A stretch of 62,134 nt of DNA, the filler included, from Globobulimina sp. (taxonomy: Eukaryota): NCBI GenBank assembly GCA_003354225.1. It is 8 parts of 8 records of this genome, joined end to end, with 100 filler letters (N's around TTAATTAATTAA, not from the genome) between each part and the next. Parts side by side here need not be neighbours in the genome. Positions count along the whole stretch, not along the records: positions 46,749 to 54,392 come from PIVH01000134.1; 7 more parts are not named here. One strand, written 5' to 3'. Shown here piece by piece: positions 7,731-54,392 of the stretch. Under the pieces are notes generated by a model, which saw only the letters and a list, made by a program, of their open reading frames with translations, was not told where the DNA came from and made no database searches. Each line of letters starts with the position of its first letter. The first letter of the stretch is position 1. The position numbers were made by a program, and so were the translations under genes.

Positions 7731-7830
7731 NNNNNNNNNNNNNNNNNNNNNNNNNNNNNNNNNNNNNNNNNNNNTTAATTAATTAANNNNNNNNNNNNNN
7801 NNNNNNNNNNNNNNNNNNNNNNNNNNNNNN
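7731..7830. other. Artificial contig linker N44-TTAATTAATTAA-N44 (also at 15529-15628, 23326-23425, 31111-31210, 38888-38987, 46649-46748, 54393-54492)
   Basis: An identical 100-nt spacer with all-frame stops occurs seven times. Contig lengths decrease monotonically: 7730, 7698, 7697, 7685, 7677, 7661, 7644, 7642. Confidence 0.98.
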
Positions 7831-8285
7831 AAATTTGTATACTATTTGTATACCGAAATTTGTATACTATTTGTATACCGAAATTTGTATACTATTTGTA
7901 TACCGAAATTTGTATATTATTTGTATACCGAAATTTGTATACAGAAATTTGTATATTATTTGTATACCGAAATTTGTATACTATTTGTATACCGAAATTT
8001 GTATACTATTTGTATACCGAAATTTGTATATTATTTGTATACCGAAATTTGTATATTATTTGTATACCGAAATTTGTATACAGAAATTTGTATACAGAAA
8101 TTTGTATATTATTTGTATACCGAAATTTGTATACTATTTATATACCGAAATTTGTATACTATTTGTATACCGAAATTTGTATATTATTTGTATACCGAAA
8201 TTTGTATACAGAAATTTGTATATTATTTTTATACTGAAATTTGTATACTATTTGTATACCGAAATTTGTATATTATTTGTATACC
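7831..8285. repeat. Minisatellite: 25-bp unit AAATTTGTATAYTATTTGTATACCG interspersed with a 14-bp unit AAATTTGTATACAG
   Basis: A directly visible tandem array that runs to the contig edge. It explains the three overlapping repetitive ORFs at 7835-8301. Confidence 0.95.
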
Positions 8286-8513
8286 TAAAGATTTAATTTA
8301 GTCACCAAAAATGTTTCGATAAGGGTAAAATATTTTACAATTCTCAACAATTAAAAATATGCAACCCTGCCCTCCTGCACCGGCCCTCTTGCTCTGGATC
8401 TTCTTGCCTCTTTCACCAGGGGCACTGCATCTTGTAATCTTGCCTCTGGGTCTATCGACCCGCCATGCAACTCTGTTGCCCCCCTATACATTGATAATAA
8501 TAATCCCTTTCAA

Positions 8514-9513
8514 ATGTTAATAAATGACAACGAAGAAAATTTCAATAATTTCATATCATCTTTAAAAGCAGAATCAAATAAAATGGATAATGTTAAGACA
8601 TATAGTTCTCAGGTAAATATCGGCTCGGTTTTATCGGCAATTATTGCAAATATCGCAATTTTTAATTTTGATATAAATACTCCCGCAAATAAGCATGGTA
8701 CAATTAAAGCATATATTAAATATATTGGACATTTAGATAATGAAAAATTTAACCGGTTATACCCAAAAATGTTAAATTCTGTGATGAATAATTTAATTCA
8801 AACCTGTATAATTGACAAAAATAGAAACATATTAAACTTAAATAAATATATTACCACCTTAACAAACAGACAAATTCCAACTGGATTAATTCAGAATAAT
8901 TCTCCCTCCACAAATTCCAACACGATTTCCAACAATTTTGAACCTCCCCGAAAAAGAAGGAAATTAAATAATTCTCAACAAAGTAACACGAATCAACAGT
9001 TTGCACCTAATTTCCCCACAAATTATACAAATAATACAGCACGAAATTCACAGCAAAGGCCCCTAAATCCCCTCACAAACAATTCGCAAACAGCGCTAAT
9101 TCCATATAACCATCATCCAAATTATCAAAATAATGCTGTTAATACAAGAAAAGTAAATCCTCAGCCCATTACAGCAGCAGATTTAGCCACGTTACGTGAT
9201 GATATGACACGTGAATTCCAACAAAAATTCGAAGAAAATAAACGTTTACAAAATAGAATTAATTATAACAATAAACCAAAATTTGACTACAATAATGATG
9301 ATCCAAATACTGTCGAATGCCTCGAATCTGTAAACACAAACAAAATCACAGGATTTATAATTGACAAACAAAAAAAACAAGATCCCATTGTCGTAATGGT
9401 AGACCAAGTCGTTGCAAAACAAAAAAACAAAACAATTACCAAATTAAATAATTTATTAAATACTAAATATACCCCATCGGATGTTTTAACAGATGTTTTA
9501 ACAGAATTAGAAA
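8514..9513 (+). CDS. Element A ORF1 (putative common 5' exon; N-terminal part of Gag-like protein)
   Basis: Homologous to element B ORF1 (AIIANIAIFNF/AILVNIYLFNF; IIDKNRNILNLNKY/IIDKNGYIINLKKY; KPKFDYN/KPTFEWN). Ends ...ELE A|GTTAAT with a phase-1 donor at 9514. The frame is open upstream to 8355 without an ATG, so the 5' part may be missing. Confidence 0.75.
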
Positions 9514-9779
9514 GTTAATACCTTTATATTTCTATTTCTCTCAAATTTTATAATGTTTGCAATGACTTTGGTATAATTTTTAATTGTTTCTGGCGCTTAG
9601 TCTGTGACTTTAAATCACTTCTTACGATTGATACTTTTATTAAATTCACCACCGATTATTAATCTCATTTATATTATACAACAACCGCAATACTTCCATG
9701 TTTACAATGTGTTTCTGTTAGTTTTGTGAATCTTGCTTTAAAATTTCTAAATGCTGTAGTCAAATATTACTTTATTTAG

Positions 9780-10831
9780 ATGGCAATTTTAATTTGGCAA
9801 ATATAATTAAATTATATTCACCGACAAATTCTTCCAAAATAAAAACCATAATAACAAAAAATGATAAATTTGCTGTCAAAATTGAATTAATTTTATTTTT
9901 CAGTGGATTTGTATCGGATGACTTTACTGTTTATGATCTTTATTATAAAATATTTAAATATTTGGATCCTAAAATTAAAAATATTGATCATTTTTCAGTC
10001 TCAAAAGAGTTAAAATCGCTATTTAAAAACAAATGGAATGCATTCAATATGAATCTTTTTATCATTTCATTTATCAAATTGATCTCCGACAGTTTAAGCC
10101 TATTAATACCAACCGATAAAGATCTACAATTATTGTTTCGTACTATTCGTATATTTTGTATGTATAAAATGTTCGATTTAACAAAATATGCCGAATTATT
10201 AATACCATTAATTAAAAATGACCGAATATCAGCTCCAACATTATTTGCTTGGATAAACAAAGGAATTAAGCATGCTTTGGACAGAAATAATTCTTTTTAT
10301 ATTACATTCTCTTCAAATATTATGCAATCTCAATTAACAATGAATAATAAATCATCATTAGACCAATTATTGTCGTCCACATTTTTATTTTATGATAAAT
10401 CTGAATTTTATGAGAAATCCGATAATGTTTTAAATATATTACAAAATGCGTTGATTTTAGATAAGTTAAATGCAGGTATTTCCCCTAAATCCGGTGCCTT
10501 TTATGATAAACAGGTAAAAAATACAAATAATTATAATAAAACATGGTCAAATTACAAACCAAATAAACCGAACATTAATAAACCAAATAATAATCCAAAT
10601 AACATTAAAAATGAACCTCCGAAAAAGAACCGCAATTTAAATCCAAAAGCAGCTGAAAAAGTAATCCAAAATTTATTATCAAAAACAGGCACTTCATTTT
10701 CATTAAACAGCAAATATTGTTGCTTTTATAATGCATATAATTATTGCCGATTAGGCGAAAAATGTCCAAGATCGCATATTTGTATTATTGATAATAAAAA
10801 TCATCCATTAATGAAATGTGACAAAATTTAG
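9780..10831 (+). CDS. Element A Gag-like exon with C-terminal CCCH-type zinc finger
   Basis: The ORF-track start is a TTG, with no ATG at the conserved start. Acceptor TTTATTTAG|AT GGC AAT. C-terminus CCFYNAYNYCRLGEKCPRSHICIIDNKNHPLMKC resembles the DIRS/Ngaro Gag zinc finger. Confidence 0.8.
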
Positions 10832-11137
10832 CCAATTATATCATTTATATGAATATTCATTGATATCTTTATAAAAATTCTTAATATTTGCTCTACATTT
10901 TTATTTATCTAATTATGAATGGATAATATTAAAGATTATTACTAAAATATTAATTGTCTTATTCTAAATTAATTTTTCCAACATTTTTTCAATTTTTTTC
11001 CTACATTTTTTGTTATTTAAATTTCTATCATTAATTTTAAAAATTTGTTAATATTAATATTTATGTTAATATTACTTTGTTTGTTGTATAAAATGTTTGT
11101 GAGTCAATAATATCTACTCTGTACATACTAATCTCAG

Positions 11138-12926
11138 TGATCGATCCCGTAATATCTGAAAAAGTAAAAAATTTACAAACATTACACGCCGAAGGCTATA
11201 AAAACAAACATCATTTCAACATAAATGCATTTAGAAAATACCTTAAATTGAAACAAAATGGGAACTTAGAAATCCATTTCATCGAAAATTGCTTCCCTTT
11301 ATGGAAATCCTTCCATAATAAAAGCTGGGAACCTTCGAACCTCTCAACAAAAATTAATAATTTAGTATGTACTAAAAATGATATTATTGCATTTATTGAT
11401 AAAATATCTGAGGAGTGCCAATTAGGCCAAATTGAGCCTATCAATTACGACCCAAAATATATATTAATGATCTTTGGAACACCAAAAAAAGATGAATTTG
11501 GTTTATATACTAAAACGAGAGTAATACGTAATGGCTCATTTCATGCATCCGGCAAAACAGCAATAAATCAATGGATTCGTAAAGAAAAATGTAATATGCG
11601 GGACCTCCCTAATTTGAAAACATACACCAAATTACTTATAAATAATGAATATATGTCCTTGCGTGACTTGGCAGACTTCTTCAGACAAATAAAACTGCCT
11701 GAAAGTGACGCGGATTTCGTTGGATATTCTTTATTTGGCCTACGATTTAGAGATCGTAGCCAACCGTATGGTGTATCCTCAGCACCCGGCAATTCCCAAT
11801 ACTTCTCAACAATTTTGGTTTGGATTCTGAATAATTGTGTACTTAATAAAAAACAGCAACATTTAATAAATTCAATTTTAGTCCATATCGATGACTTTGT
11901 CATCGCCGCAAAATCCAAAACCGACTGCCGTTTATTAACAAATTTATTCGATAACTTATTACGCGAATTAAAAGTAAAAATCTCTGAGCATAAATCTGTA
12001 GATTGTGTAAGGAAAGGAGTTATTTACGGTATTTATTGGAATTTGGCAAATAAAACACTCAAAATACCTGATTTAGCCTTAAAACAACTTAAATATTTTA
12101 TCTCTTTAGTCATAAAATACAGAATTGCAACGGGCCGCGCTTTGGAATCATTAACTGGCAAAATAATGCATTGGAGCCAGTTAAACAAAGCCACAAAAGC
12201 CTTAGCATACAGATCATTGGCTTATATTCATAAAAATATACGTAATGGCCGCTTAAATAAAACAGATTGCATAATATTACCCATTTCTGTTATCAATGAT
12301 TTACGTTTTTGGCTTAAATGGATTGATAATATTAAAATTGTGTCAATGTATACAATCTTAAACAATCCATCGATAAATGTGTTTGCTGCAACTGATGCGT
12401 GCAAATTTGGTGCAGGCTATGTCATTGATTCTTTATTTGCAAAATATAAATTCAATAAAAAGGATTTAAACCTCTCCATTAATCAAAAGGAGGCTCACTG
12501 TGTCCTAACACTCATCGAATCACATAAACGTTTATTAAATTGTATATTGATAATGCATCATGTTATTATTCAATGATTAGAAAATGGTCGACGTCGTATA
12601 ATATGATGATATTCGTATTTGAATTATGTTTATTAATGATAAAATACAAAATTTATATCCATTTTGTATGGCTACCATCAGCCTTTAATTTTTTACCAGA
12701 TCGATTGTCTAGATTTAAAATGACGGAATTCCATGAATTATGTACCAATTTTAATCTAAATTTAGTTGAAACCACATATGATTATTTTGGCAGATATCAA
12801 TTTGCCAATAATCCCTTAATGAATTATGAAAATGACATGGATGAATATGCAAAATTCATTAAATGGCTAAAACAACCATTAAATGTCAGAGCTGTCTCGC
12901 CATATAAATGTTATATGAAAATATGA
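11138..12926 (+). pseudogene. Element A reverse transcriptase-RNase H, frameshifted within RNase H at about 12540
   Basis: RT motifs PKKD...RVIRNGS, RDLADFFRQI, QPYGVSSAP and VHIDDF. RNase H motifs ATDAC, INQKEA, YIDNAS and N.LPDRLSR. Alignment to element B indicates a deletion of about 16 nt between ESHKRLL and LYIDN. Confidence 0.88.
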
Positions 12927-12976
12927 TTATAAACTCATTTCCAGTCTAATTTGCCCATTTTACGAGTGATTCAAGT

Positions 12977-13280
12977 TTAGCATTCCCAAAAATGCTCTCT
13001 TTAATATGTAAATTATATTATTATTTATATAATGCTTCTGTATAAATTCGTATAAATAATGATTAAATTATTAGTTTTAATGTATTTACTATCACTTAAA
13101 TCGCTAAAATCAAATTAAATTTGTGTTATTCGCATCAATCTAATAATTATGCATTGTATAATATGTTCAATTTAAATTTCTATCGATTCAATTTATATTA
13201 AAATGCCTTGACAAAATATAACTTGCCGTTTAATATAATGTTTCTAAAAAGACATATTAGCATTCCCTAAAATGCTCTTT
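12977..13280 (+). repeat. Two copies of a 24-nt hairpin-forming repeat TTAGCATTCCC(A/T)AAAATGCTCT(C/T)T in the pol-YR spacer (12977-13000, 13257-13280)
   Basis: Direct repeat with 22/24 identity; each copy has an AGCATT/AATGCT stem. Confidence 0.7.
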
Positions 13281-13671
13281 TTGTCTCTTGATATTCTAAA
13301 TTTACAAATTTTAATATTAATATTCAATATTTAAATGTTTACAATGGCCTCCTCAGACCGCTCAGAATTCAATGGAATTCGACTTAATATGCTCTATTTC
13401 TGTTTATCTGAGCTCGTGTCACGTTCCCCTGATGAAGGAAACTAAAGTGACTAAAACTGTTTTCGAGCTAAATTTTAAAATATACTTCGAAACTTTAGTG
13501 AAACCCTACAAGCTTTAAACAATTACATTTTTAATATTGTCTTTTGTTAATCGTTCTGGGCATTATTGTTTATCATTTTTGTCTTATAATTTGTGTGAAT
13601 TTTTTGCAAACAATCAATACTTTTTTGCAAACAATCAATTTTTAAATTTAAATTATTTTGTGTGTATATAG

Positions 13672-14888
13672 AATTCTTTCATGCCCGTTTAGCTAATAAT
13701 CGTATTGCCCCTAAAGACCCCAAAAATACACAACATATTCAAAAAATAAGATCCCGCGATAAAGTACATTTAACAAAAATACATTATGTTTCCAGTTTGC
13801 GAAACTGGTCAAAATATTGTTTAACAATCGATGAAGATCCATTGCAAATGCCATTGGACCCGCTGACGATAACGTATTGGTTCTCCGAAAGAGCACTACA
13901 ATTAGGCAGCGTCCAATCAATTGATACTTGGCAGTCAACATTAATATGGCTATGCAAATTATGTGGAGCCAATACTGCATGGAAAGGTGATATGGATTTT
14001 AAGGATTTTAAAAGTGGCTTAAAAATCGAATATTGGAAGAATGCACTAAGCAGACTTCCATTTGAATTAAAACACATAATAATGTATACAAAATTTTATA
14101 AAGCGTATGGAAAGCACCTATTAACAATCGATATTGATAATTTATTGAAGGTATTAATTGCGCAAATCTACTTTTGCTCAATGTCGAGACCGTGCGAATT
14201 AATAATATGTAAATCAAATAAAACTAAATTTGGTGTTAAATTAAAACATGTTTTTCATATAAATACAGCACCAAATAAATTAAATTGGTACTTTAAATTA
14301 TTTGTTGTTTCCTTCAAAAATCAAAAATTCAAAAGTGTTATTAAGAGAGTAATCATAGGAGACTCCAGATGCGGTCATAAATATATTAAAAATACACAGA
14401 AACACTGTCCATGCAATTATTTAAACCCATATCTATTACTAAGTATATATTTAGACAGATCATACAAATATGCATTACAAAACAAATATTTTACAATAAA
14501 TAAAAATCAGAATTTATTCAGATTTAAAAATAATATAAATGCCGTAACTACGGACTTATTAAACATAGCGAAAGAAATCACCATAATTTGCAATCTATCT
14601 GAATCTGAGCGGTATACTTCCTATGCCTTCAGAATTGGTGGTGCTTCTCTCGCCAATAATAACCAAATACCACATCCTAAAATCCTAAAATATGTCGGCT
14701 GGAAGCCATCGAATTTGCCGCATGTTTCTTACAGATATATGTACTTCAAAGAAGAACATTTTGCGACCTTTATTCGTGAATTAGTCCATGGATATAATTT
14801 TGAAAATAATAATGAGTTTAATTTGAATAATAATACAGGGCAAATATTTGATCCATGGGCAAATCGAGTTGACTACAAAGACTGGTAA
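13672..14888 (+). CDS. Element A tyrosine recombinase
   Basis: MSRPCEL (catalytic R), SFKN (K), SYAFRIGGAS (HxxR box with Y), VGWKPS (W) and YRYM (catalytic Y). N-terminal Y...LRNW..YC core-binding region. No ATG at the ORF start; acceptor TATATAG|AA. Confidence 0.9.
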
Positions 14889-15351
14889 TATCCATATAAT
14901 AATTCTCTCTCTTCATACCACAAAGTGATAACCACAAATCTGTAACTCCCCATAGTGATTTATTTCCAATGCGGTTTTATGTCTGGCACTTTTGTATATG
15001 TTGTTGTAGCACCAGTCTTTAGTTAGTGTTTGTTTGGGTGACTTTAAGTTTTCGTGTTTGGTTTTTGTTTCCCTCTCACAAATTTTAGTCCCCTCTACGT
15101 TCCTTTTCAAATTCCTTTAACGGCCACAGGTTTTAAAAAGATAAAATTTAGTCCTACGGGCAACGGGGTTTTATTTATATTTTATGGTGTATTGTACCAT
15201 AAAATAATACTATTGATTGGTTTATTTCTACCAATTAATAACATCAATATTAATTTAAATTTATTTCTCCCGTTTGTTCAAATATAAATCAAGTGGTCAT
15301 CACTGTTACCACTAACTTGAAATCAGTAATTAAATAAAAGTTATTAAGTTA

Positions 15352-15528
15352 TCACAACAATTCTTTTAATTGCTCATTTCGTAAATTTAGCATTGTCTGT
15401 GTTCGCTGTTTCTCCCTTTCATACTCAGTGACAGTCTTTTCCAGCAACCTCTTCAATCTGTGATTTTGTGCATTTTTCTTTTCCAACACAACTTGCATTC
15501 TGGTTTGACATTCTTCCATTAACTTTTC
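15352..15528 (-). CDS. C-terminal coiled-coil fragment of a probable host gene (5'-truncated by the contig end)
   Basis: Manual translation: EKLMEECQTRMQVVLEKKNAQNHRLKRLLEKTVTEYEREKQRTQTMLNLRNEQLKELL**. It bounds the right end of element A. Confidence 0.55.
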   Translation of the reverse strand, partial: EKLMEECQTRMQVVLEKKNAQNHRLKRLLEKTVTEYEREKQRTQTMLNLRNEQLKELL

Positions 15529-15628
15529 NNNNNNNNNNNNNNNNNNNNNNNNNNNNNNNNNNNNNNNNNNNNTTAATTAATTAANNNNNNNNNNNNNNNN
15601 NNNNNNNNNNNNNNNNNNNNNNNNNNNN

Positions 15629-19065: not shown

Positions 19066-20094
19066 ATGTCTATTATATCAAATTTCTTTGGTAGCAATCC
19101 AACAATGACATTAACATGGAATGACCAAGATTCATTACCCACAGTGCGTGTGCCATCAGATGATGATAGAAGGATAGATAAATTATATTTATTTGCAGCG
19201 GACCAGGCGGTGAGTGGCAAAGTAGATATCATAATGCCGCCAAATACAAAAAAGATTGAACATAATGGCATTAAGGCAGAGTTGATCGGGCAAATAGAGT
19301 TAGCGTATGATCGCGGCAATCATTATATATTCTTTTCATCGCAAAAAGAATTGAGTGGCCCAGGCATATTAACCCAAGACTCGGCCTACAAATTCGAATT
19401 CACCGACAAAGATAATGACAAAAAATATGAAGCTTATGATGGCATCAATGTGCGATTGAGGTATATTTTATATTTATATTTATATTATATTATAATATCA
19501 ATAAATAAATCTATGCGAATTTGCGCGTGATACTGATATAGATACTTTATACGTATTCGAATAACCCGCGCATATTCATCAATATCCAAAGAATTTGATT
19601 TTGCAGTCCAAAAAATCCAAGACTTGCCTGAAGTAAATAATGAGTTAAAAATGGAAGTTGGAATTGAGGATTGTTTACATATTGAATTCGAATATGACAA
19701 ATCCAAATATCATTTAAAAGATGTGATTCGTGGAAAGATCTTTTTTTTATTGGTTCGTATTAAAATAAAACATATGGAATTGCAAATTTTAAAGAGAGAA
19801 TCAACGGGAAGCGGCCCCAACTTATACAATGAGACGGAGGTAATCACTAAATTTGAGATTATGGACGGTGCGCCCATCAAAGGTGAAAACGTACCAATTC
19901 GACTATTCTTAGAGCCGTACGATTTAACCCCGACATTTCGCACCATTCATAATAAATTCTCTGTAAAATATTATTTAAATTTAGTATTAGTGGATGAAGA
20001 GGAACGACGATACTTCAAACAGCAAGAAATTACCATTTGGAGAAAACAATTAAAGCATCATTATGATCCATTTGCAAAACCTTTGTCTGGTTAA
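19066..20094 (+). CDS. VPS26: Retromer subunit VPS26 (exons 19066-19460 and 19542-20094)
   Basis: EHNGIKAELIGQIEL, GINVRLR|YF, KMEVGIEDCLHIEFEY, KFEIMDGAP and RRYFKQQEITIWR. 81-nt intron GTATAT...TACTGATATAG. Confidence 0.96.
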
Positions 20095-46648: not shown

Positions 46649-46750
46649 NNNNNNNNNNNNNNNNNNNNNNNNNNNNNNNNNNNNNNNNNNNNTTAATTAA
46701 TTAANNNNNNNNNNNNNNNNNNNNNNNNNNNNNNNNNNNNNNNNNNNNTT

Positions 46751-47224
46751 AATCCCTATCAATTATTATTTACATATTTAAAACGTTGCCATAAACTATC
46801 ATTAAATTCAAATACATTCACGTATACAAATTCAAGCCCAGCATTCAGATTAGAAAATGGAATATCGGCAACAACTAAATTCTTAGGCAAAATTGCAAAA
46901 GAAATTGCAAAATTAACTAATGAATCAGAACCAAAGAGATTAACTGGTTATTCTTTCAGAATTGGAGGTGCGACGCTATCGTGTATGCAACAAATACCAC
47001 AACCTAAATTATTAAAATATGTAGGATGGAAACCGTCGCACTTACCGCATGTTTCAATGAGATATATGCGTTACAAAGAAGTAGATTTTAAAACTTTTGT
47101 TTTTGAACTACTTCACGGATCAAATGAAGTATCACATATTAATCAATTATCAACATTTAAAATAACAGCAGAAATATACGATCCATGGACTACAGATTTA
47201 GACAGAAAAAAAATATGGGATTAA
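46751..47224 (+). CDS. Element B tyrosine recombinase, C-terminal part
   Basis: Manual translation from the contig start: NPYQLLFTYLKR...IAKEI...EPKRLTGYSFRIGGATL...IPQPKLLKYVGWKPSHLPHVSMRYMRY...IYDPW. Colinear with the element A YR. Confidence 0.9.
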   Translation, partial: NPYQLLFTYLKRCHKLSLNSNTFTYTNSSPAFRLENGISATTKFLGKIAKEIAKLTNESEPKRLTGYSFRIGGATLSCMQQIPQPKLLKYVGWKPSHLPHVSMRYMRYKEVDFKTFVFELLHGSNEVSHINQLSTFKITAEIYDPWTTDLDRKKIWD

Positions 47225-47814
47225 TCAATTAAAAGTTAACAAACAATCAAATTAAAATTTGCAACAAATCAATAAACTTTCAATTAATTGCCTTAAAATA
47301 ATTCACAAATAAATTCTCCAAATTAATTAAAATTATTCCTCTCTTTTTATCTTTAAAATTATAAATAATTTTTCCTAATCATTTAATTATATTGCGCCTA
47401 TAAATAAATAATAAGTGATAAATGCGAGCCTACGGGATATGGGGATTATATATACTAAAATTGTCTCCATATAAATTAATTTAATTTAATTCAATTCTTT
47501 CTCCCGTTTGCTTGAAATAATATAAATAAAGAAAGAAGAAACAACAGTTATTATAAATCATAATAATAAACGTAGAGCAATTATTCTGCTTATAATGACT
47601 TTGTGAATGTGTGTCTTTTTGTTGTTGTTGAAGTGAAGTTTTTTATCTTTGAACTGAACTTCAACAAACTTTTTACCCTCGCCTCTGAATCCAGACTCCT
47701 TGCAAAAAAGTACAAAGTGATAAGTAATCACACAAATTAACAAACATATCATACAAACTATTAACAAACTTCCTTAACATATTAATACAAACAACTTCCC
47801 CAATTCCATTCAAA

Positions 47815-49558
47815 ATGACATCAAATAAACATGAATTAGAAGATAATGCAAATGAAGTATCAAAGTTCATATCTGAACCTGTAAAATTCAGCGAAATTGA
47901 TGTTGTACAGTTATATGCAACAATGGCTGATCAAATTGCAAAAATAAATGAACAAAACTGGTTAATATCGTTTCGTAAAAATGTCCTTAAATCAAAACCT
48001 TCAAATATCGCAAATTCCGATAAAATTGCATATTTAACCCAAGTTGAAATAGTAATATTATGTTATTATTTAAAATCATTATTATCAAAGGTTTATTTTA
48101 GCCCAGCAAAGAATCGAACAACTTTTGAATCATTAAAATTATTTCTTAATACAATATTTAAACATTGTATTTATGATAATAAACATCGCTCCCTTTTTGA
48201 CATAGTAATTTCAGTCGCAACGCCAATTTCCGATAAAGACTTTAAAAATTTAAGAGAAATAAAATACAAATCCGAATACAAAAAATATAAATTAATCACA
48301 CAATTTGATTACATCAATTATTTAGATTTATTATTATCAAATAAAACTAATAATATAATTAACTTAAATTTATCCCATTCCCAAGATGAGATTGATAATG
48401 CGGAAAGTGATGATTTTAAACATCCAAATTATAATGGAATGTCACATACATTTGGCAATGATTTTACTTTCTCTGCATCAAATCTCTTAAATTTACCTGA
48501 AATTAATAAATATACCAATAAACCCCCAAAAATAAATGAAATTACGTCAATCCCATCGTCCACTCAATCAAAACCAATCAATTCCAACAAAAATAAAAAT
48601 ATAACTCCGACAACAACCTCCAACAAATCAAATAAATCAAATACAAATAGAACAGCAGTAAATGATACATCTTATATGCACTCGCCCTCATTCCCAATAT
48701 TCACCACAAAAGACATTACAAATAAAACTAACTTTGAAAACTTCTGTGATTCCATAATAGGCGAAACATTAAATTTATTAAGCAATGATACGATACTTTA
48801 TCGCCAACAATTATTGATTGCAATATTAGTAAATATTTATTTATTCAATTTTAGTATTTCAATGCCTACCTCGTCTCCAATTAATAAACATATTGCGGTA
48901 ATTGCAAAAACCAAAGATTTAAATTGTTTATATAGGAATATGAGGAAACAAATACCGTCAGTTCAAAAGCAATTATATGAGACAGGAATAATTGATAAAA
49001 ATGGATATATAATAAATTTAAAAAAATACAAATTAGTCCTCAAACATCGCAAAATACCACATTTAATAATTACTAAATATTCGCCTCAAACACGAGTACG
49101 CCCAAAACCCGATAATTGTACCCCTTTATTTGATAATTTATTTCAACCCCAACCAAGAAGACATAAATCATCATCTCCGCTTACTGTGGCAACAACAAAT
49201 AAACCATTAACAAAAAATGATATGGTATTAATGCAAAATCAAATTAATACGGCAATTAACTCTAAATTTGATTTATTAAAACAAGGTTTAGATCGAAGAG
49301 AATACGCAAAAAAACCTACCTTTGAATGGAATGAACATAAATCAAATCATAATCAATTAAGTTCAATTAACACAAATGATATGATTGCAGCAGTAATAGA
49401 TAAAGAGAAAAAACATGAATGTATATTGAAAATTGTTGATGTTGCAATTACAAATAATCGAAATAAAAACGTTGTATTAGTAAACAATTTAATTAATCAG
49501 AAAGTTGGTATAAATGGACAAAGATTAACAAATAAAGATATTGTACGCCAATTAGAAG
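47815..49558 (+). CDS. Element B ORF1 (putative common 5' exon)
   Basis: ATG-initiated. Homology with element A ORF1 ends at ...QLE G|GTATAT (phase-1 donor at 49559). The last 26 ORF codons (IYIYLLFYQIFF...) read like translated intron. Confidence 0.8.
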
Positions 49559-49779
49559 GTATATATATTTACCTTTTATTCTATCAAATATTTTTTATTC
49601 GTTTTAACTTTCTTTTTTTGAATTTTTATAAATTATAATGATTTGAATAGATTGACATCTTTCTTACGTAATAATTTTAGTTCTTTCTTTGAATTTTAAA
49701 TCAATAATTTATATTTTACCACAACCACAACTTAAATTTATTAAAATATATTAAAATGATTTTAATTAATACTAAAAAG

Positions 49780-51017
49780 GAAATATAACATTGTCAAATA
49801 TTGCGATAATGCAATCACCTGCAAATTCAGCAAATATTAAAAGTTTATTAAATAACAAAATTATTTTGTCAATAAAAGCAGATTTAATATTATTTATTAC
49901 TGGCACAAATGATGAAGATTTCTCATTTCTTAATTTAATGTATCAAATAAATAAATATTTAAACAAAAGATGTAAATTTTTGCATAATAACTTTTCAACA
50001 GAATTAAAATCATTATTTAACAATAAATGGAATATATACAATACATTTAATTGGATTAGAGAATATATTAATGATTTAAACATAAAATTTAATAAATTAA
50101 TTCCAAAAACATTGGAAGAAGCAGAATTATTCAGAGTAATAAGACTATGGTTTGATTATAAATCATATGATATTAAAAAATTAATGGAAACGTTATTATT
50201 CTCTGTAAAAGATACAAAATTTGAACCTCATTTAATGGCAGCATGGGTTGATGGAGGTGTTCGTGATGCAATTATAAAAAATCAATGTTTCACAGTAATA
50301 TTCACGAGTAATTTTATGAACAATCATCGAATTAAAAACAGCAAAATAACATTGGATGTATTCCTTTCAAATCAATTTAATAATTATTCCAGTGAGGATG
50401 CACAAAATAAATCAAATTTAATTACAAAAACAGATAAAATTAAAGACCGAAGGAAAGCTGGTAATAATCGAGAATCAACAGATAACGACGCATATTATTA
50501 TCGTCAGAGAGAATCGAATGAAAATAGATATAATCCTCCTCCATATCGAGAGCGTCGTAACAGAAATCATCGAGATCGGCGTAATCGAAATAGGGATACA
50601 GATAAAAAAGGTGCGTATCAACAAAATGAAAATACTCAAAATAATAATACTCGAAATTACAATCCAGAATACAATCGAAATAATAATGATGATTACAAAC
50701 GAGGATACCGAAATTACCGTGATAATGTTAGGAATGACTATGCAAAATATGACAGAAATTATGAGCAGCAAACAAGATCAGATTATCCTCGTAGTAATCG
50801 ACAGAATAAGCAGCCAAATGTATTAGTTGAAGCTGTAAAAGAATGCAAATCATTGTTGAGAGGAACTGGGAAATATTATTCTCTCAAATCACAGCAATGC
50901 GCATCATACAATGCAAATGATTCATGTTACAAAGGTGCCGAAAATTGCCAACGTGATCATAAATGTATATTACATCCAAGAGATAATCATCCATTATGCA
51001 AATGTCCCTCGTTATAA
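49780..51017 (+). CDS. Element B Gag-like exon with Arg/Asn-rich region and CCCH zinc finger
   Basis: Acceptor ACTAAAAAG|GA AAT ATA ACA TTG; ELKSLF.NKWN shared with element A; C-terminus CASYNANDSCYKGAENCQRDHKCILHPRDNHPLCKC. Confidence 0.8.
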
Positions 51018-51350
51018 ATAAAAATAAAACTAATTTAATACCAAATTCTAATAAATTAATTTCCAAATAATACAATTTACCAAATAAGTTTCTTTAATCA
51101 TTACAAAACAGTATTATTTAAATTTATTCATTGAATTTTATTAATTGTTACTTAACTTATTGTTTATATGTAAAATAATTTAAATTTTCTAAATTTCGCC
51201 AACATATTTCCAACTTTGTCAATTAAAAAACTAAATAAAATATAAATTTCTTGTCGCTAATACTTATTTAATATATAAAATAAGTCCCCTTTGTCGCAGT
51301 GGTTGTGGTAATTTCTTTGCTTAAATTCTAAAAATCTTTCTTTTATTCAG

Positions 51351-53176
51351 AAATATCTCCAGAATGTGCCTCAAAATTAAAAAATCTCCAAAAATTACAT
51401 AGCGAAGGATCTAAATTTAAAAATGATTTAAATATCAAACAATTCAAAAAATATTTGAAAACAAAACAAAATTCAAAACTTGTAATTAAATATGTTGAAC
51501 ATGGATTTCCTTTATTTCTTAAAACGCATAACAAAACTGACCCGAATGGAGTACCTTTGTCACCTCTCGAACTTTCAACAAATATTAATAACATTGCCAA
51601 CTCCTTAAATGATGTAAAAGCATTTATTGATAAATTAGCAGAAGAAGTAAAAAATGGACAAATTGAGCCAATTTATCATAATGCAAAATATTATTGCATG
51701 ATTTTTGGAACTCCCAAAAAAGACGAAAAAGGATTTTACACAAAAGTCAGAGTAATAAGAAATGGTTCATACCACGAACAAGGCAAAACTGCCATAAATC
51801 AATGGATAAATAAACAAAAATGCAAAATGAAAAACCTCCCGAACATGATACAATACATAAAATTATTAATTAATAAGAATTACTTTGCCTTAAGAGACTT
51901 ATCTGACTTCTTCAGACAAGTTCCATTACCAAAAGAAGACGCGGATTACATTGGATATTCATTATTTGGCCTCAGATTTAGAGATCGCAAACAGCCATAC
52001 GGTGTAGCTTCAGCCCCAGCAAACTCACAGTGGTTTGCCACACTTTTAATTTGGATCATGAACAATCATAAACTCTCCAATGACCCAGAATTATTAAATT
52101 GTATCTTAGTCCATATCGATGATTTCGTCTTAGCAACAAAAACAAAACAAAACTGCTCAAAATTAGAAACAATTTTTGATGAATTAATGTCAGAATTAAA
52201 TGTAAAAATATCTCATAAAAAATCAGTACATTGCTGTCAAGAAGCAATATTATACGGATTATCATGGAATTTACGAAATAAATTAATATCAATACCTGAA
52301 AAAGCATACATTGAATTAAAGAGATTCATAGATTTAGTCATAAGATATCGAATAGTCTCAGGTGCAGCGCTTGAATCCCTTACAGGGAAAATAATGCATT
52401 GGTCGCAATTAAATAAATCCTCAAAATCGTTAGTCTTTAATTCCATTTTTTATATTCATAAAAATCTTAGAAACGGCAACTTAAAAAAATCAGATTATAT
52501 AATATTACCATTGTCAATCATAAATGATTTGAAATTCTGGTTAAAATACGCAGATTGCATAAGATGTGTACCAATGGCACACATTTTAAATTCACCATCA
52601 ATTAATATTTATGCTGCGACAGATGCATGTAACGAAGGAGCAGGATTTGTCATTGATAATGTATTCGCAAAATATAAATTTGTAAATAATGATAAAAATT
52701 GGCATATAAATTTAAAAGAAGCTCACTGTGTATTATCATTAATTGAAACATTTAAACATAGATTAACAGGAAAAGCACTTTTATTATACATTGATAATGC
52801 TTCGTGTTTCTATGCTATGGCAAGGAAATGGTCGTCAACCTATTCGTTAATGATGTTTGTATATGAATTATGTATAAAATTAATGAAATATCGCATATTT
52901 TGTAAATTAGAATGGGTTCCTTCAGCATTTAACTCATTACCGGATGCATTATCACGTGATGATGATGAAAAATTCTTTAATTATTGCAATCTTTTTAATT
53001 TACGATTAAATCAAATCAAACCAACATATTTTAATGACTTTAAATTTGATTTTAATCAAAATAAATTTTATGAAAATGATATGATTGAATATAGAAAATT
53101 TATAAATTGGCTCAATTTATCACCAAAAATAAGAGAACAATGTGATTATCCTTTTTATGGTGACTATAATATCTAG
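51351..53176 (+). CDS. Element B reverse transcriptase-RNase H (intact)
   Basis: Acceptor CTTTCTTTTATTCAG|AA ATA TCT CCA. RT motifs RDLSDFFRQV, QPYGVASAP and VHIDDF; RNase H motifs ATDAC, INLKEA, YIDNAS and NSLPDALSR. Confidence 0.92.
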
Positions 53177-53778
53177 AAATTACTTGAATTATTACATATA
53201 AATGATAAATTGCTCAAAATTGTGTTTATTTCAATTAAAATACCAATTAATTAATATTGAATAATTAATAAAATGTGTTTCTATCTATAAATGCTATAAA
53301 ATTGTATAAAATTTCTAATTAATTAAACTGTTTAAATTGTGGCATATTCTGTTGATTCTAATTATATTCAATAACAATATAATTTAACTTGATTGCATAA
53401 ATTGTCAATATAAACGACTTAGCAATTATAAATTCAGCAATTGTACTTATTAATTAACAGACTCAAAACGACTAGTGAGGTCACGAGCGGATGCTCGGAC
53501 TCAAAAGTCAAGGGTACAAAAGTTTACTTATTTTAAAAAAAACTTGCGACTAACAAAAGAGAAACGAACTTTTTAAAATATAAAAAAAGAGATTTCTCCA
53601 CAATATAATTCTGATGAAACTTATGAAACCTCAGTAAAAGTTACTAACTGTTGAAATTTTAAGACCCTAAAAGGATTATAATGACTTTCATAAGCGTCAG
53701 ATTTAAATTTTCTTCTTAATGCACTTTTTCCTTAATCAAAAAATGCATATTATAAATTATAATAATATTTAATATCAG

Positions 53779-54392
53779 ATCATATGAAAGAGAGATTAAA
53801 CAATAATCGTATGGCAAAAAAAGATCTGAAAAACAGAAATCATATTAATAAATTAAAAACAAATTATAATATTATGACAACAAAAGCAAATTATGTATCA
53901 AGTTTAAGAAACTGGGCAAAATATTGTATTGAATATAATGAAAACCCATTTCAAATGCCAATAGATCCATTGGTTGTAACTTATTGGTTCTCCGAAAGAG
54001 CATTACAAGCAGGCAGCGTTGCGTCAATTTGTACATGGCAGTCTTCCCTAAGTTGGCTATGCAAAATAAAAGGATTCACACCTTCGTTTAGAGACAATTA
54101 TGATTTTTCTACATTTAAAAAAGAATTAAAAAAAGAATATGCAGAAGAATCGGATACGAGACTCCCATTCGATTTAAATCACATATTTCTATATACAAAA
54201 CATTATAAATGTTATGGAAAACACTTAAAATATATTCCATTAATTGATTACTTAAAAGTATTATTGGCTCAAATATATTTCTGTTCGATGGCAAGACCAT
54301 GCGAATTAACAAAAATAATAGGAAATGAGTCCAAACCTGGATTAAAATTAGGTGATATCTTTCATAATACAGATGCAGCAAATCCAAATGAT
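53779..54392 (+). CDS. Element B tyrosine recombinase, N-terminal part (cut by the contig end)
   Basis: YVSSLRNWAKYC, DPL..TYWFSERALQ.GSV, RLPF.L.H and IYFCSMARPCEL, all shared with the element A YR. Confidence 0.9.

Follow-up and report, generated by a model that had tools for sequence, protein, structure and literature searches.

The Two Elements and Their Reading Frames

The stretch of DNA analyzed here, referred to as the window, comprises 62,134 nucleotides (nt) from Globobulimina sp. (GenBank assembly GCA_003354225.1) and contains two diverged copies of a retrotransposon, element A and element B. The window consists of eight separate pieces of about 7.7 kilobases (kb) each. Element A lies on piece 2 (7831-15528) and element B on piece 7 (46749-54392). 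Because the pieces are separate, A and B are not neighbors, and frames are cut at piece ends, as is the element B recombinase frame at 54392. The frames and sites of A, of B and of the copy upstream of B, and the VPS26 intron described below, are on the plus strand. Both elements have a leader frame followed by gag-like, pol and tyrosine-recombinase frames, and the sites described here suggest that a single 5' splice site, placed where the leader ends, would be joined to any of three 3' splice sites, one before each downstream frame.

Element B spans 47815-54392. Its first frame, the leader (open reading frame 0, ORF0), starts with an ATG at 47815 within a frame that is open over 47728-49638, and the proposed exon 1 (47815-49558) has 581 codons plus one base. 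The proposed 5' splice site, GTATAT at 49559-49564, stands in the context CAA TTA GAA G|GTATAT, in which the last exon base is 49558, the GT is 49559-49560 and the interrupted codon is GGT (49558-49560). The site is in phase 1, and its position and phase are the same in element A and in the related elements L008, L003 and L006. Left unspliced, the leader frame continues for 26 codons beyond the donor to a stop at 49636-49638. A candidate acceptor precedes each of the other three frames. The first, AAAAAG|GA (AG 49778-49779), has an in-frame TAA one codon upstream, would end an intron of 221 nt, and leads into the gag-like frame (49780-51017, stop included), which has a Cys/His knuckle at its C-terminus. 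The second, TTATTCAG|AA (AG 51349-51350), lies behind a pyrimidine run and would end an intron of 1792 nt; the pol frame that follows (51351-53176) encodes reverse transcriptase (RT) together with RNase H and has its first ATG at codon 116. The third, AATATCAG|AT (AG 53777-53778), would end an intron of 4220 nt and leads into the first 204 residues of the tyrosine-recombinase frame (53779-54392), cut by the piece boundary. At all three acceptors, the G of the AG is codon position 1 of the downstream frame, and joining would yield GGA, GAA and GAT as junction codons, with no stop among them. The four frames are in different reading frames, and the spacers between them have stops in every frame. 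A first-pass annotation had placed a phase-1 donor at 49559 and phase-1 acceptors before 49780, 51351 and 53779, and all four sites are confirmed in the sequence.

The same layout had been claimed for element A, and it was borne out there by an exon end at 9513 and exon starts at 9780, 11138 and 13672. The leader-frame remnant (8355-9513) is truncated at its 5' end against a satellite, and the proposed donor is GAA A|GTTAAT, with 9513 as the last exon base. The gag-like frame (9780-10831) follows the proposed acceptor TTTAG| (AG 9778-9779) and has its first ATG at codon 90. The pol frame (11138-12926) follows the proposed acceptor CTCAG| (AG 11136-11137) and is shifted near 12528-12576, and the recombinase frame (13672-14888), complete in this element, follows the proposed acceptor ATATAG| (AG 13670-13671). 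The junction codons are AAT, ATG and AAA. Element A is a dead copy, with a shifted pol and a 5'-truncated leader that lacks the start-codon region present in L008. The satellite adjoining its truncated 5' end is a tandem array at 7831-8300 whose repeat unit, AAATTTGTATACTATTTGTATACCG or a variant of it, measures about 25 nt.

At the protein level, the leaders of A and B are 30% identical, the gag-like frames 30-34%, the pol frames 60% and the recombinase frames 56%. Homology between the two had been said to begin at the acceptors. This is the case for pol, from the first whole codon after the AG, and for gag, from the junction codon, which is one codon off in A; in the recombinase it begins three residues later. 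The spacers had been described as largely unalignable by eye, and blastn of A against B does align coding segments only. Within their very A+T-rich DNA, the pol-recombinase spacers of B (53470-53530) and A (13340-13460) have short G+C-rich stretches. The same spacer in L003 and L016 is just about 60 to 90 nt long.

Conservation of the Candidate Splice Sites in Related Elements

The relatives compared here are 19 loci (designated L001 and so on) obtained from a scan of metagenome contigs. Pol relatives number 54 at an expect value (E) up to 1e-10 in a clustered protein set, and 388 representatives at E up to 1e-30 in an exhaustive search; a search of viral contigs found none. Pol identity to element B is 93% for L001, 59% for L008 (a relative of A), 48% for L003, and 32-40% for L005-L015, L017 and L018. 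Five loci share one record prefix and are perhaps from the same organism as the window, and the others come from several records, some with a much higher G+C content.

Five elements (B, A, L008, L003 and L006, with pol identity down to 37%) include the leader end and all three downstream frame starts. A phase-1 donor at the homologous codon is present in all five, phase-1 acceptors are present at all 15 frame starts, and no junction would create a stop. In each element, a D[LIV][VL]xx[LV][EQ] motif stands immediately before the codon that the donor GT interrupts behind its first base. The donor sequences are GAAG|GTATAT, GAAA|GTTAAT (twice), GAAG|GTTTAT and CAAG|GTAAGT. The leader frame reaches a stop 1 to 26 codons past the donor in the four elements measured, B, A, L008 and L003. 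The L006 leader breaks about 150 nt before the donor (1941-2090), and its conserved C-terminal motif continues in another frame; the break is either a frameshift in that copy or an extra small intron (GTGAGC at 1941). The 5' part of L010 (positions 1-2000) falls into a series of short frames and has canonical GTATGT sites, of which those at 653 and 1098 are in phase 1; this leader region may have introns of its own or may belong to a degraded copy.

The comparison was extended to 37 frame starts, 6 of gag, 15 of pol and 16 of the recombinase, taken from the two elements and their relatives. A phase-1 AG could be assigned at the head of the conserved part in 37 of 37, an assignment that involves the author's choice. 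A choice-free measure, the phase of whichever AG comes first from the last in-frame stop onward, replaced BLAST start points, which are too noisy in AT-rich sequence. By this measure, the first AG is in phase 1 at 30 of the 37 starts, in phase 2 at four and in phase 0 at three. Control positions in the same sequences (762 stops followed by at least 40 open codons) gave a phase-1 share of 0.374 (P = 7e-8). With AGs that overlap the stop excluded, phase 1 is found at 27/37 starts against 0.281 in the controls (P = 2e-8), and with one entry per clade and frame it is found at 19/25 (P = 9e-7). The assigned acceptors are YAG in 34 of 37 cases, against a background of 39%, and the remaining three are AAG. 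The match of phase across diverged elements had been put forward as a sign of selection on splicing. This is supported, and more strongly once the relatives are included, with 5/5 donors, 15/15 acceptors and 30/37 first AGs in phase 1; acceptor phase across the family is not random.

The candidate acceptor is shifted by whole codons between clades, by zero to about eight codons in pol. It lies directly before a conserved [IL]D in the group of A, B, L002 and L004, and seven to eight codons before [IL]D in L006, L007, L009, L010, L012, L014 and L018. The gag acceptors of A and B are one codon apart, with the phase unchanged. The acceptor CACACAG| recurs before different frames: gag in L003, the recombinase in L007 and L017, pol in L014, and both pol and the recombinase in L018; the L010 pol frame has TACACAG. 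This recurrence, mostly in the G+C-richer relatives, hints at a preferred acceptor context.

Start Codons and the Onset of Coding Constraint

Start codons are scarce at the heads of the downstream frames. An in-frame ATG between the last stop and the AG is absent in 35 of 37 frames, and both exceptions are in L018. No copy has conserved coding that continues upstream of the AG to a start codon; the first-pass annotation had named such upstream coding as evidence against its proposal. An ATG within ten codons past the AG is found in 7/37 frames, including the element B gag and recombinase frames. The 29/37 frames that have an in-frame ATG neither between stop and AG nor in the ten codons after it have their median first ATG at codon 90. 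The ATG of the element B recombinase, two codons past the AG, had been raised as a possible independent start. Such a start is possible for the B clade; in A, L008, L003, L016 and most relatives this ATG is absent, and the first ATG lies at codon 23 to 116. Family proteins in databases begin with methionine. A database protein, P0039, matches L009 (about 580-590), where the first codon is GTG, and the N-terminal 'M' is an artifact of a prokaryote-style gene caller that uses GTG or other alternative starts.

Insertions and deletions (indels) mark where coding constraint begins. Four close pairs (A/L008, B/L001, L003/L016 and L012/L015) were compared at eight acceptors. At 8/8, frame-breaking indels are present in the intron within 120 nt of the site (60 nt in the case of the L003/L016 recombinase), and at 0/8 are any present in the exon. 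At the donor, the gaps in the exon of the close pairs are all of 9 nt, and those in the intron are of 1 nt. DNA contigs of diverged copies, compared with element B, show the same pattern in at least 12 indels (16 in all, 12 of them listed). Three of those listed (51315, 51319 and 51328) lie 22 to 35 nt before the element B pol AG, and seven (53713-53775) lie 3 to 65 nt before the recombinase AG; among the listed indels, none lies in the frame that follows either AG. Another two of those listed form a compensating pair within the element B leader frame. The last 150 nt of each of the 15 proposed introns contain stops, in all three frames in 14 of 15.

Protein Content and Class of the Elements

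The pol frames match the Pfam family RVT_1 with E = 6e-11 in element B and 2e-8 in element A. RT_RNaseH scores 23.2 bits in element B, slightly below the cut-off of 24.8, and PF17917 is precomputed for many relatives. The gag homologue of element A has a weak match to zf-CCCH, under the Pfam cut-off. The last frame has no match in Pfam, and a PDB profile search gave one weak integrase match (E = 0.035). An AlphaFold model of the element A recombinase, built from nine family members with a predicted local distance difference test (pLDDT) score of 75.5, has Cre as its best match (E = 4e-6), followed by XerH, lambda integrase and Flp. The recombinase alignment retains SRPxE, K, RIGG, W and RY positions, which in our own reading would be the catalytic residues. 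Pfam detected no protease family in any frame at E up to 1, and no integrase family was found. No methyltransferase domain was detected by Pfam after RNase H, and the pol frame ends about 120 residues past the RNase H match. Because RT/RNase H occurs together with a Cre-like fold, and no protease, integrase or methyltransferase was found, the elements are assigned to the tyrosine-recombinase retrotransposons (DIRS order); in domain content they are nearest to Ngaro.

The leader frame of element B shares homology with the first frames of A and L008; its homology with that of L003 is weak and extends as far as the last residue. It has no Pfam family, no homologue among proteins of 319 to 1017 residues, and no usable match in a protein atlas; a fold prediction from four sequences reached a pLDDT of 42 and was not used.

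The terminal structures of known relatives were also sought. Split direct repeats of the Ngaro type, A1 ... B1-A2-B2, were not seen: in A, B and L001 direct repeats do not exceed 47 nt, in pieces that have been cut and may not include the element ends. Inverted terminal repeats with an internal complementary region, as in DIRS1-like elements, were not seen either, as neither A nor B has long inverted repeats; a palindrome in L003 is the sole hint. This imperfect palindrome of 26 nt (7990-8044) is non-coding and lies between the recombinase stop and the leader ATG. The ends of the L003 contig, 1-119 and 8015-8133, are identical over 119 nt, which gives a period of 8014 nt. The overlap and the palindrome would be consistent with an element in tandem or circular form whose short inverted ends have become joined. 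Comparable to this is a recombinase tail that precedes element B: positions 46751-47221 encode the C-terminal 157 residues of the recombinase frame of another copy (tblastn against the element A recombinase, 50% identity), cut by the piece boundary. This upstream copy directly precedes element B in head-to-tail orientation, and the DNA at 46751-47554 is an 86% match to the 3' part of L001.

A Proposed Single-Donor Splicing Scheme

The family has four consecutive, non-overlapping frames in different reading frames (leader, gag-like, RT/RNase H and recombinase), and in the proposed scheme the leader frame alone would provide a start codon. The full-length transcript would serve both as genomic RNA and as the mRNA for the leader protein. 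Part of the transcript would be spliced by the host spliceosome, from a single 5' splice site at the last conserved leader codon to one of three 3' splice sites, and the donor and all acceptors would split a codon after its first base. Because donor and acceptors share phase 1, each spliced mRNA would encode an in-frame fusion of the leader to gag, pol or the recombinase. It is quite probable that one donor serves three alternative acceptors, giving leader-gag, leader-pol and leader-recombinase fusions, which in element B would have roughly 990, 1190 and 990 residues. We infer that splicing does occur, that the acceptors are used alternatively and not serially, and that the leader provides all products with a shared module for assembly or targeting, much as Gag does in Gag-Pol. 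A wider conclusion is favored by a small degree. It holds that these elements form a previously unrecognized clade across many microbial eukaryotes, represented in environmental assemblies, in which obligatory retrovirus-like splicing replaces overlapping frames and recoding, and the gag-like protein, RT and recombinase exist solely as leader fusions. If true, the leader would be the functional equivalent of Gag in Gag-Pol, and splice-site strength, not frameshift efficiency, would set the product ratio.

Several points weigh against the single-donor scheme. A search for runs that contain 47700-54392 found none of RNA. Contigs of DNA type, from three runs of one sample, cover B and diverged copies of it and have no joint at 49558 or the proposed acceptors; they are not informative on RNA. 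A leader-pol fusion protein was not found: a search for longer proteins with a pol alignment gave none, a weak negative, and the best 150 of 16060 profile hits among 1.84 billion representatives are all at most 761 residues long, which is again a weak negative. The proposed introns of 1.6 to 4.2 kb far exceed the one host intron verified, which has 80 nt. Certain acceptors seem weak, such as AAAAAG in element B gag and the AAG in 3/37 frames. The seven of 37 frames with an ATG within ten codons past the AG could initiate independently. Since the phase is always 1, it attests to conservation only and not to covariation of donor and acceptor. The 37 starts are not independent, as many are related and five loci are perhaps from the same organism as the window. 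Finally, it is unusual for every enzyme to carry a fixed leader of 580 to 780 residues, which the element has no protease to remove.

Alternative Explanations

The frames could also be translated separately, from full-length or subgenomic RNA, by non-AUG initiation, internal entry or reinitiation, with no splicing and with the AGs and the GT kept by chance or for other reasons. Such initiation is compatible with the frames that have an ATG within ten codons of the AG (7/37) or upstream of it (2/37), and with the lack of a spliced product in protein databases. It leaves unexplained the 30/37 phase-1 first AGs, the preference for YAG and the retention of the GT at the leader end. Moreover, coding constraint starts exactly at the AG, and 29/37 frames have no ATG near the conserved N-terminus. 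We consider translation without splicing unlikely.

Another explanation accepts the acceptors as real and places the 5' exon elsewhere than in the leader frame. The start codon would be provided by a trans-spliced leader RNA (AUG plus one base) or by an upstream mini-exon. A single spliced leader would likewise impose one phase on all acceptors, and the L006 leader (504-513) opens with ATG A|GTGAGT, a consensus-like phase-1 donor right behind the start codon. That ATG-adjacent donor is absent from B, L003 and L008, whereas the GT at the leader end is found at the homologous codon and in the same phase in 5/5 elements, and the leader frame stops 1 to 26 codons later. The relatives differ in base composition and records and so are probably from different hosts, all of which would need a spliced leader of the same phase. 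The Rfam scan of the window gave no spliced-leader RNA, a weak negative. A 5' exon other than the leader frame is given a low probability.

Serial constitutive splicing, in which the three spacers are ordinary introns and one mRNA encodes a leader-gag-pol-recombinase polyprotein, appears very unlikely. With all acceptors in phase 1, a phase-1 donor at the end of each frame would keep the frame, and in B, L001, A and L008 an xGT codon is indeed present, at four or five codons ahead of the stop of pol. A conserved phase-1 GT at this position was checked across the pol frame ends and was dropped: such a GT is absent from the last 15 codons in 8/18 pol ends, and also in 2/10 gag ends. The phase-1 GTs that are present in gag ends belong to codons for the zinc-knuckle Cys residues, and conservation of the C-terminal tails extends to the stop, as in L003/L016 and B/L001. 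Decay of relics, with missing start codons and spacers as damage, is scarcely credible: A is truncated and frame-shifted, pol is shifted in L008 and L016, and the L006 leader is broken, but B, L003 and many loci keep long frames, of 360 to 780 codons, intact, loci from many records share the layout at protein identities of 35 to 60%, indels are purged from the frames and not from the spacers, and decay cannot yield the phase statistics.

Recoding and changes of the genetic code were rejected as well. Readthrough cannot join the frames, because they are in different reading frames and the proposed introns contain stops, and readthrough or frameshifting fails in that the spacers carry stops. Reading TAA and TAG as sense, as an alternative code, still does not fuse the element B frames. 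The ciliate code was rejected in that the four frames of element B remain apart under it and the long host frames are open under the standard code.

Comparison with Known Systems

Retroelements need much structural protein and little enzyme from one RNA that doubles as the genome. Known ways to achieve this are frameshifting or readthrough, frames that overlap and, for a few long terminal repeat (LTR) elements, a single intron. Retroviruses splice alternatively from a single major 5' splice site. Avian leukosis virus has its donor six codons into gag, so Env begins with Gag residues, and foamy viruses make Pol from its own spliced mRNA. The A/B family resembles retroviruses, as far as can be predicted from its sequence, in that one donor would serve several downstream acceptors, the unspliced RNA would be both the genome and the mRNA of the first frame, and the 5' exon would supply the start codon. 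Unlike in retroviruses, the candidate donor of the A/B family lies where a long frame, of 580 to 780 codons, ends, which would produce whole-protein fusions, and the gag-like, pol and recombinase frames would all depend on it. Also unlike retroviruses, the A/B family is not an LTR element and has no protease or integrase.

A plant pararetrovirus provides a second parallel. Splicing of the pregenomic RNA of rice tungro bacilliform virus (RTBV) brings a leader ORF into frame with the distant ORF IV, forming the P4 mRNA (PMC5902531). RTBV is similar in that a distant long ORF without a usable start is joined in frame to a leader ORF. It differs in that the ORF of the 5' exon is a tiny upstream ORF, there is one downstream gene, and RTBV is not a retrotransposon.

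Among LTR retrotransposons, copia, BARE1, Bagy2, Ogre and CRR are described in the accessible text of one source as splicing a single intron, and Ogre as splicing between ORFs (PMC3735527). On that account, the host spliceosome sets the ratio of gene products, or access to them, as it would in the A/B family. These elements differ in having one intron each, with no scheme of one donor and three acceptors in the text available, and in their integrase-bearing LTR order.

The A/B family was compared with Ngaro, DIRS1 and PAT by domain content and layout. Like Ngaro, DIRS1-like and PAT-like elements, it has the gene order gag-like, RT/RNase H and tyrosine recombinase, with no protease or DDE integrase, and as in Ngaro, a methyltransferase domain was not detected. 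Frames of DIRS-order elements frequently overlap, according to the portion of PMC9210276 that was accessible. Unlike the DIRS-order members described in such accessible text, the A/B family has an extra 5' leader frame, stop-filled spacers of about 60 to 650 nt, and frames that lack an ATG. In the portions available of the full-text literature on DIRS, Ngaro, PAT and VIPER elements, splicing for gene expression was not found; this coverage includes PMC3783388, PMC8547959, PMC6681497, PMC7192593, PMC13465315, PMC6431247, PMC9210276 and PMC4157794, and the founding Ngaro and DIRS papers and Repbase lie outside it.

If the single-donor scheme is true, dependence of every downstream gene on one splice donor would answer the expression problem of retroelements in a further way, arrived at independently of retroviruses. 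It would also explain the 'start-less' frames that gene callers see in the A/B family, and it would provide a rule for annotation, namely a phase-1 YAG behind the last stop. It would raise the question of how the element keeps its spliced RNAs from reverse transcription.

Other Features of the Window

The eight pieces of the window are linked by N44-TTAATTAATTAA-N44, which accounts for seven pairs of 44-N runs; the linkers are at 7731-7830 and then start at 15529, 23326, 31111, 38888, 46649 and 54393. Rfam and tRNA scans of the window gave no match. The pieces other than those with A and B contain ordinary eukaryotic genes with hundreds of open codons in the standard code, among them Rab3GAP2, a UBP hydrolase, VPS26 and a peroxidase. 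An intron with GTATAT had been claimed for the host VPS26 gene, and it is present at 19462-19541 (GTATAT...ATAG, 80 nt, phase 2), where the two Vps26 Pfam halves overlap in profile positions. This is the sole host intron verified, and its donor, GTATAT, is the same as that of element B.

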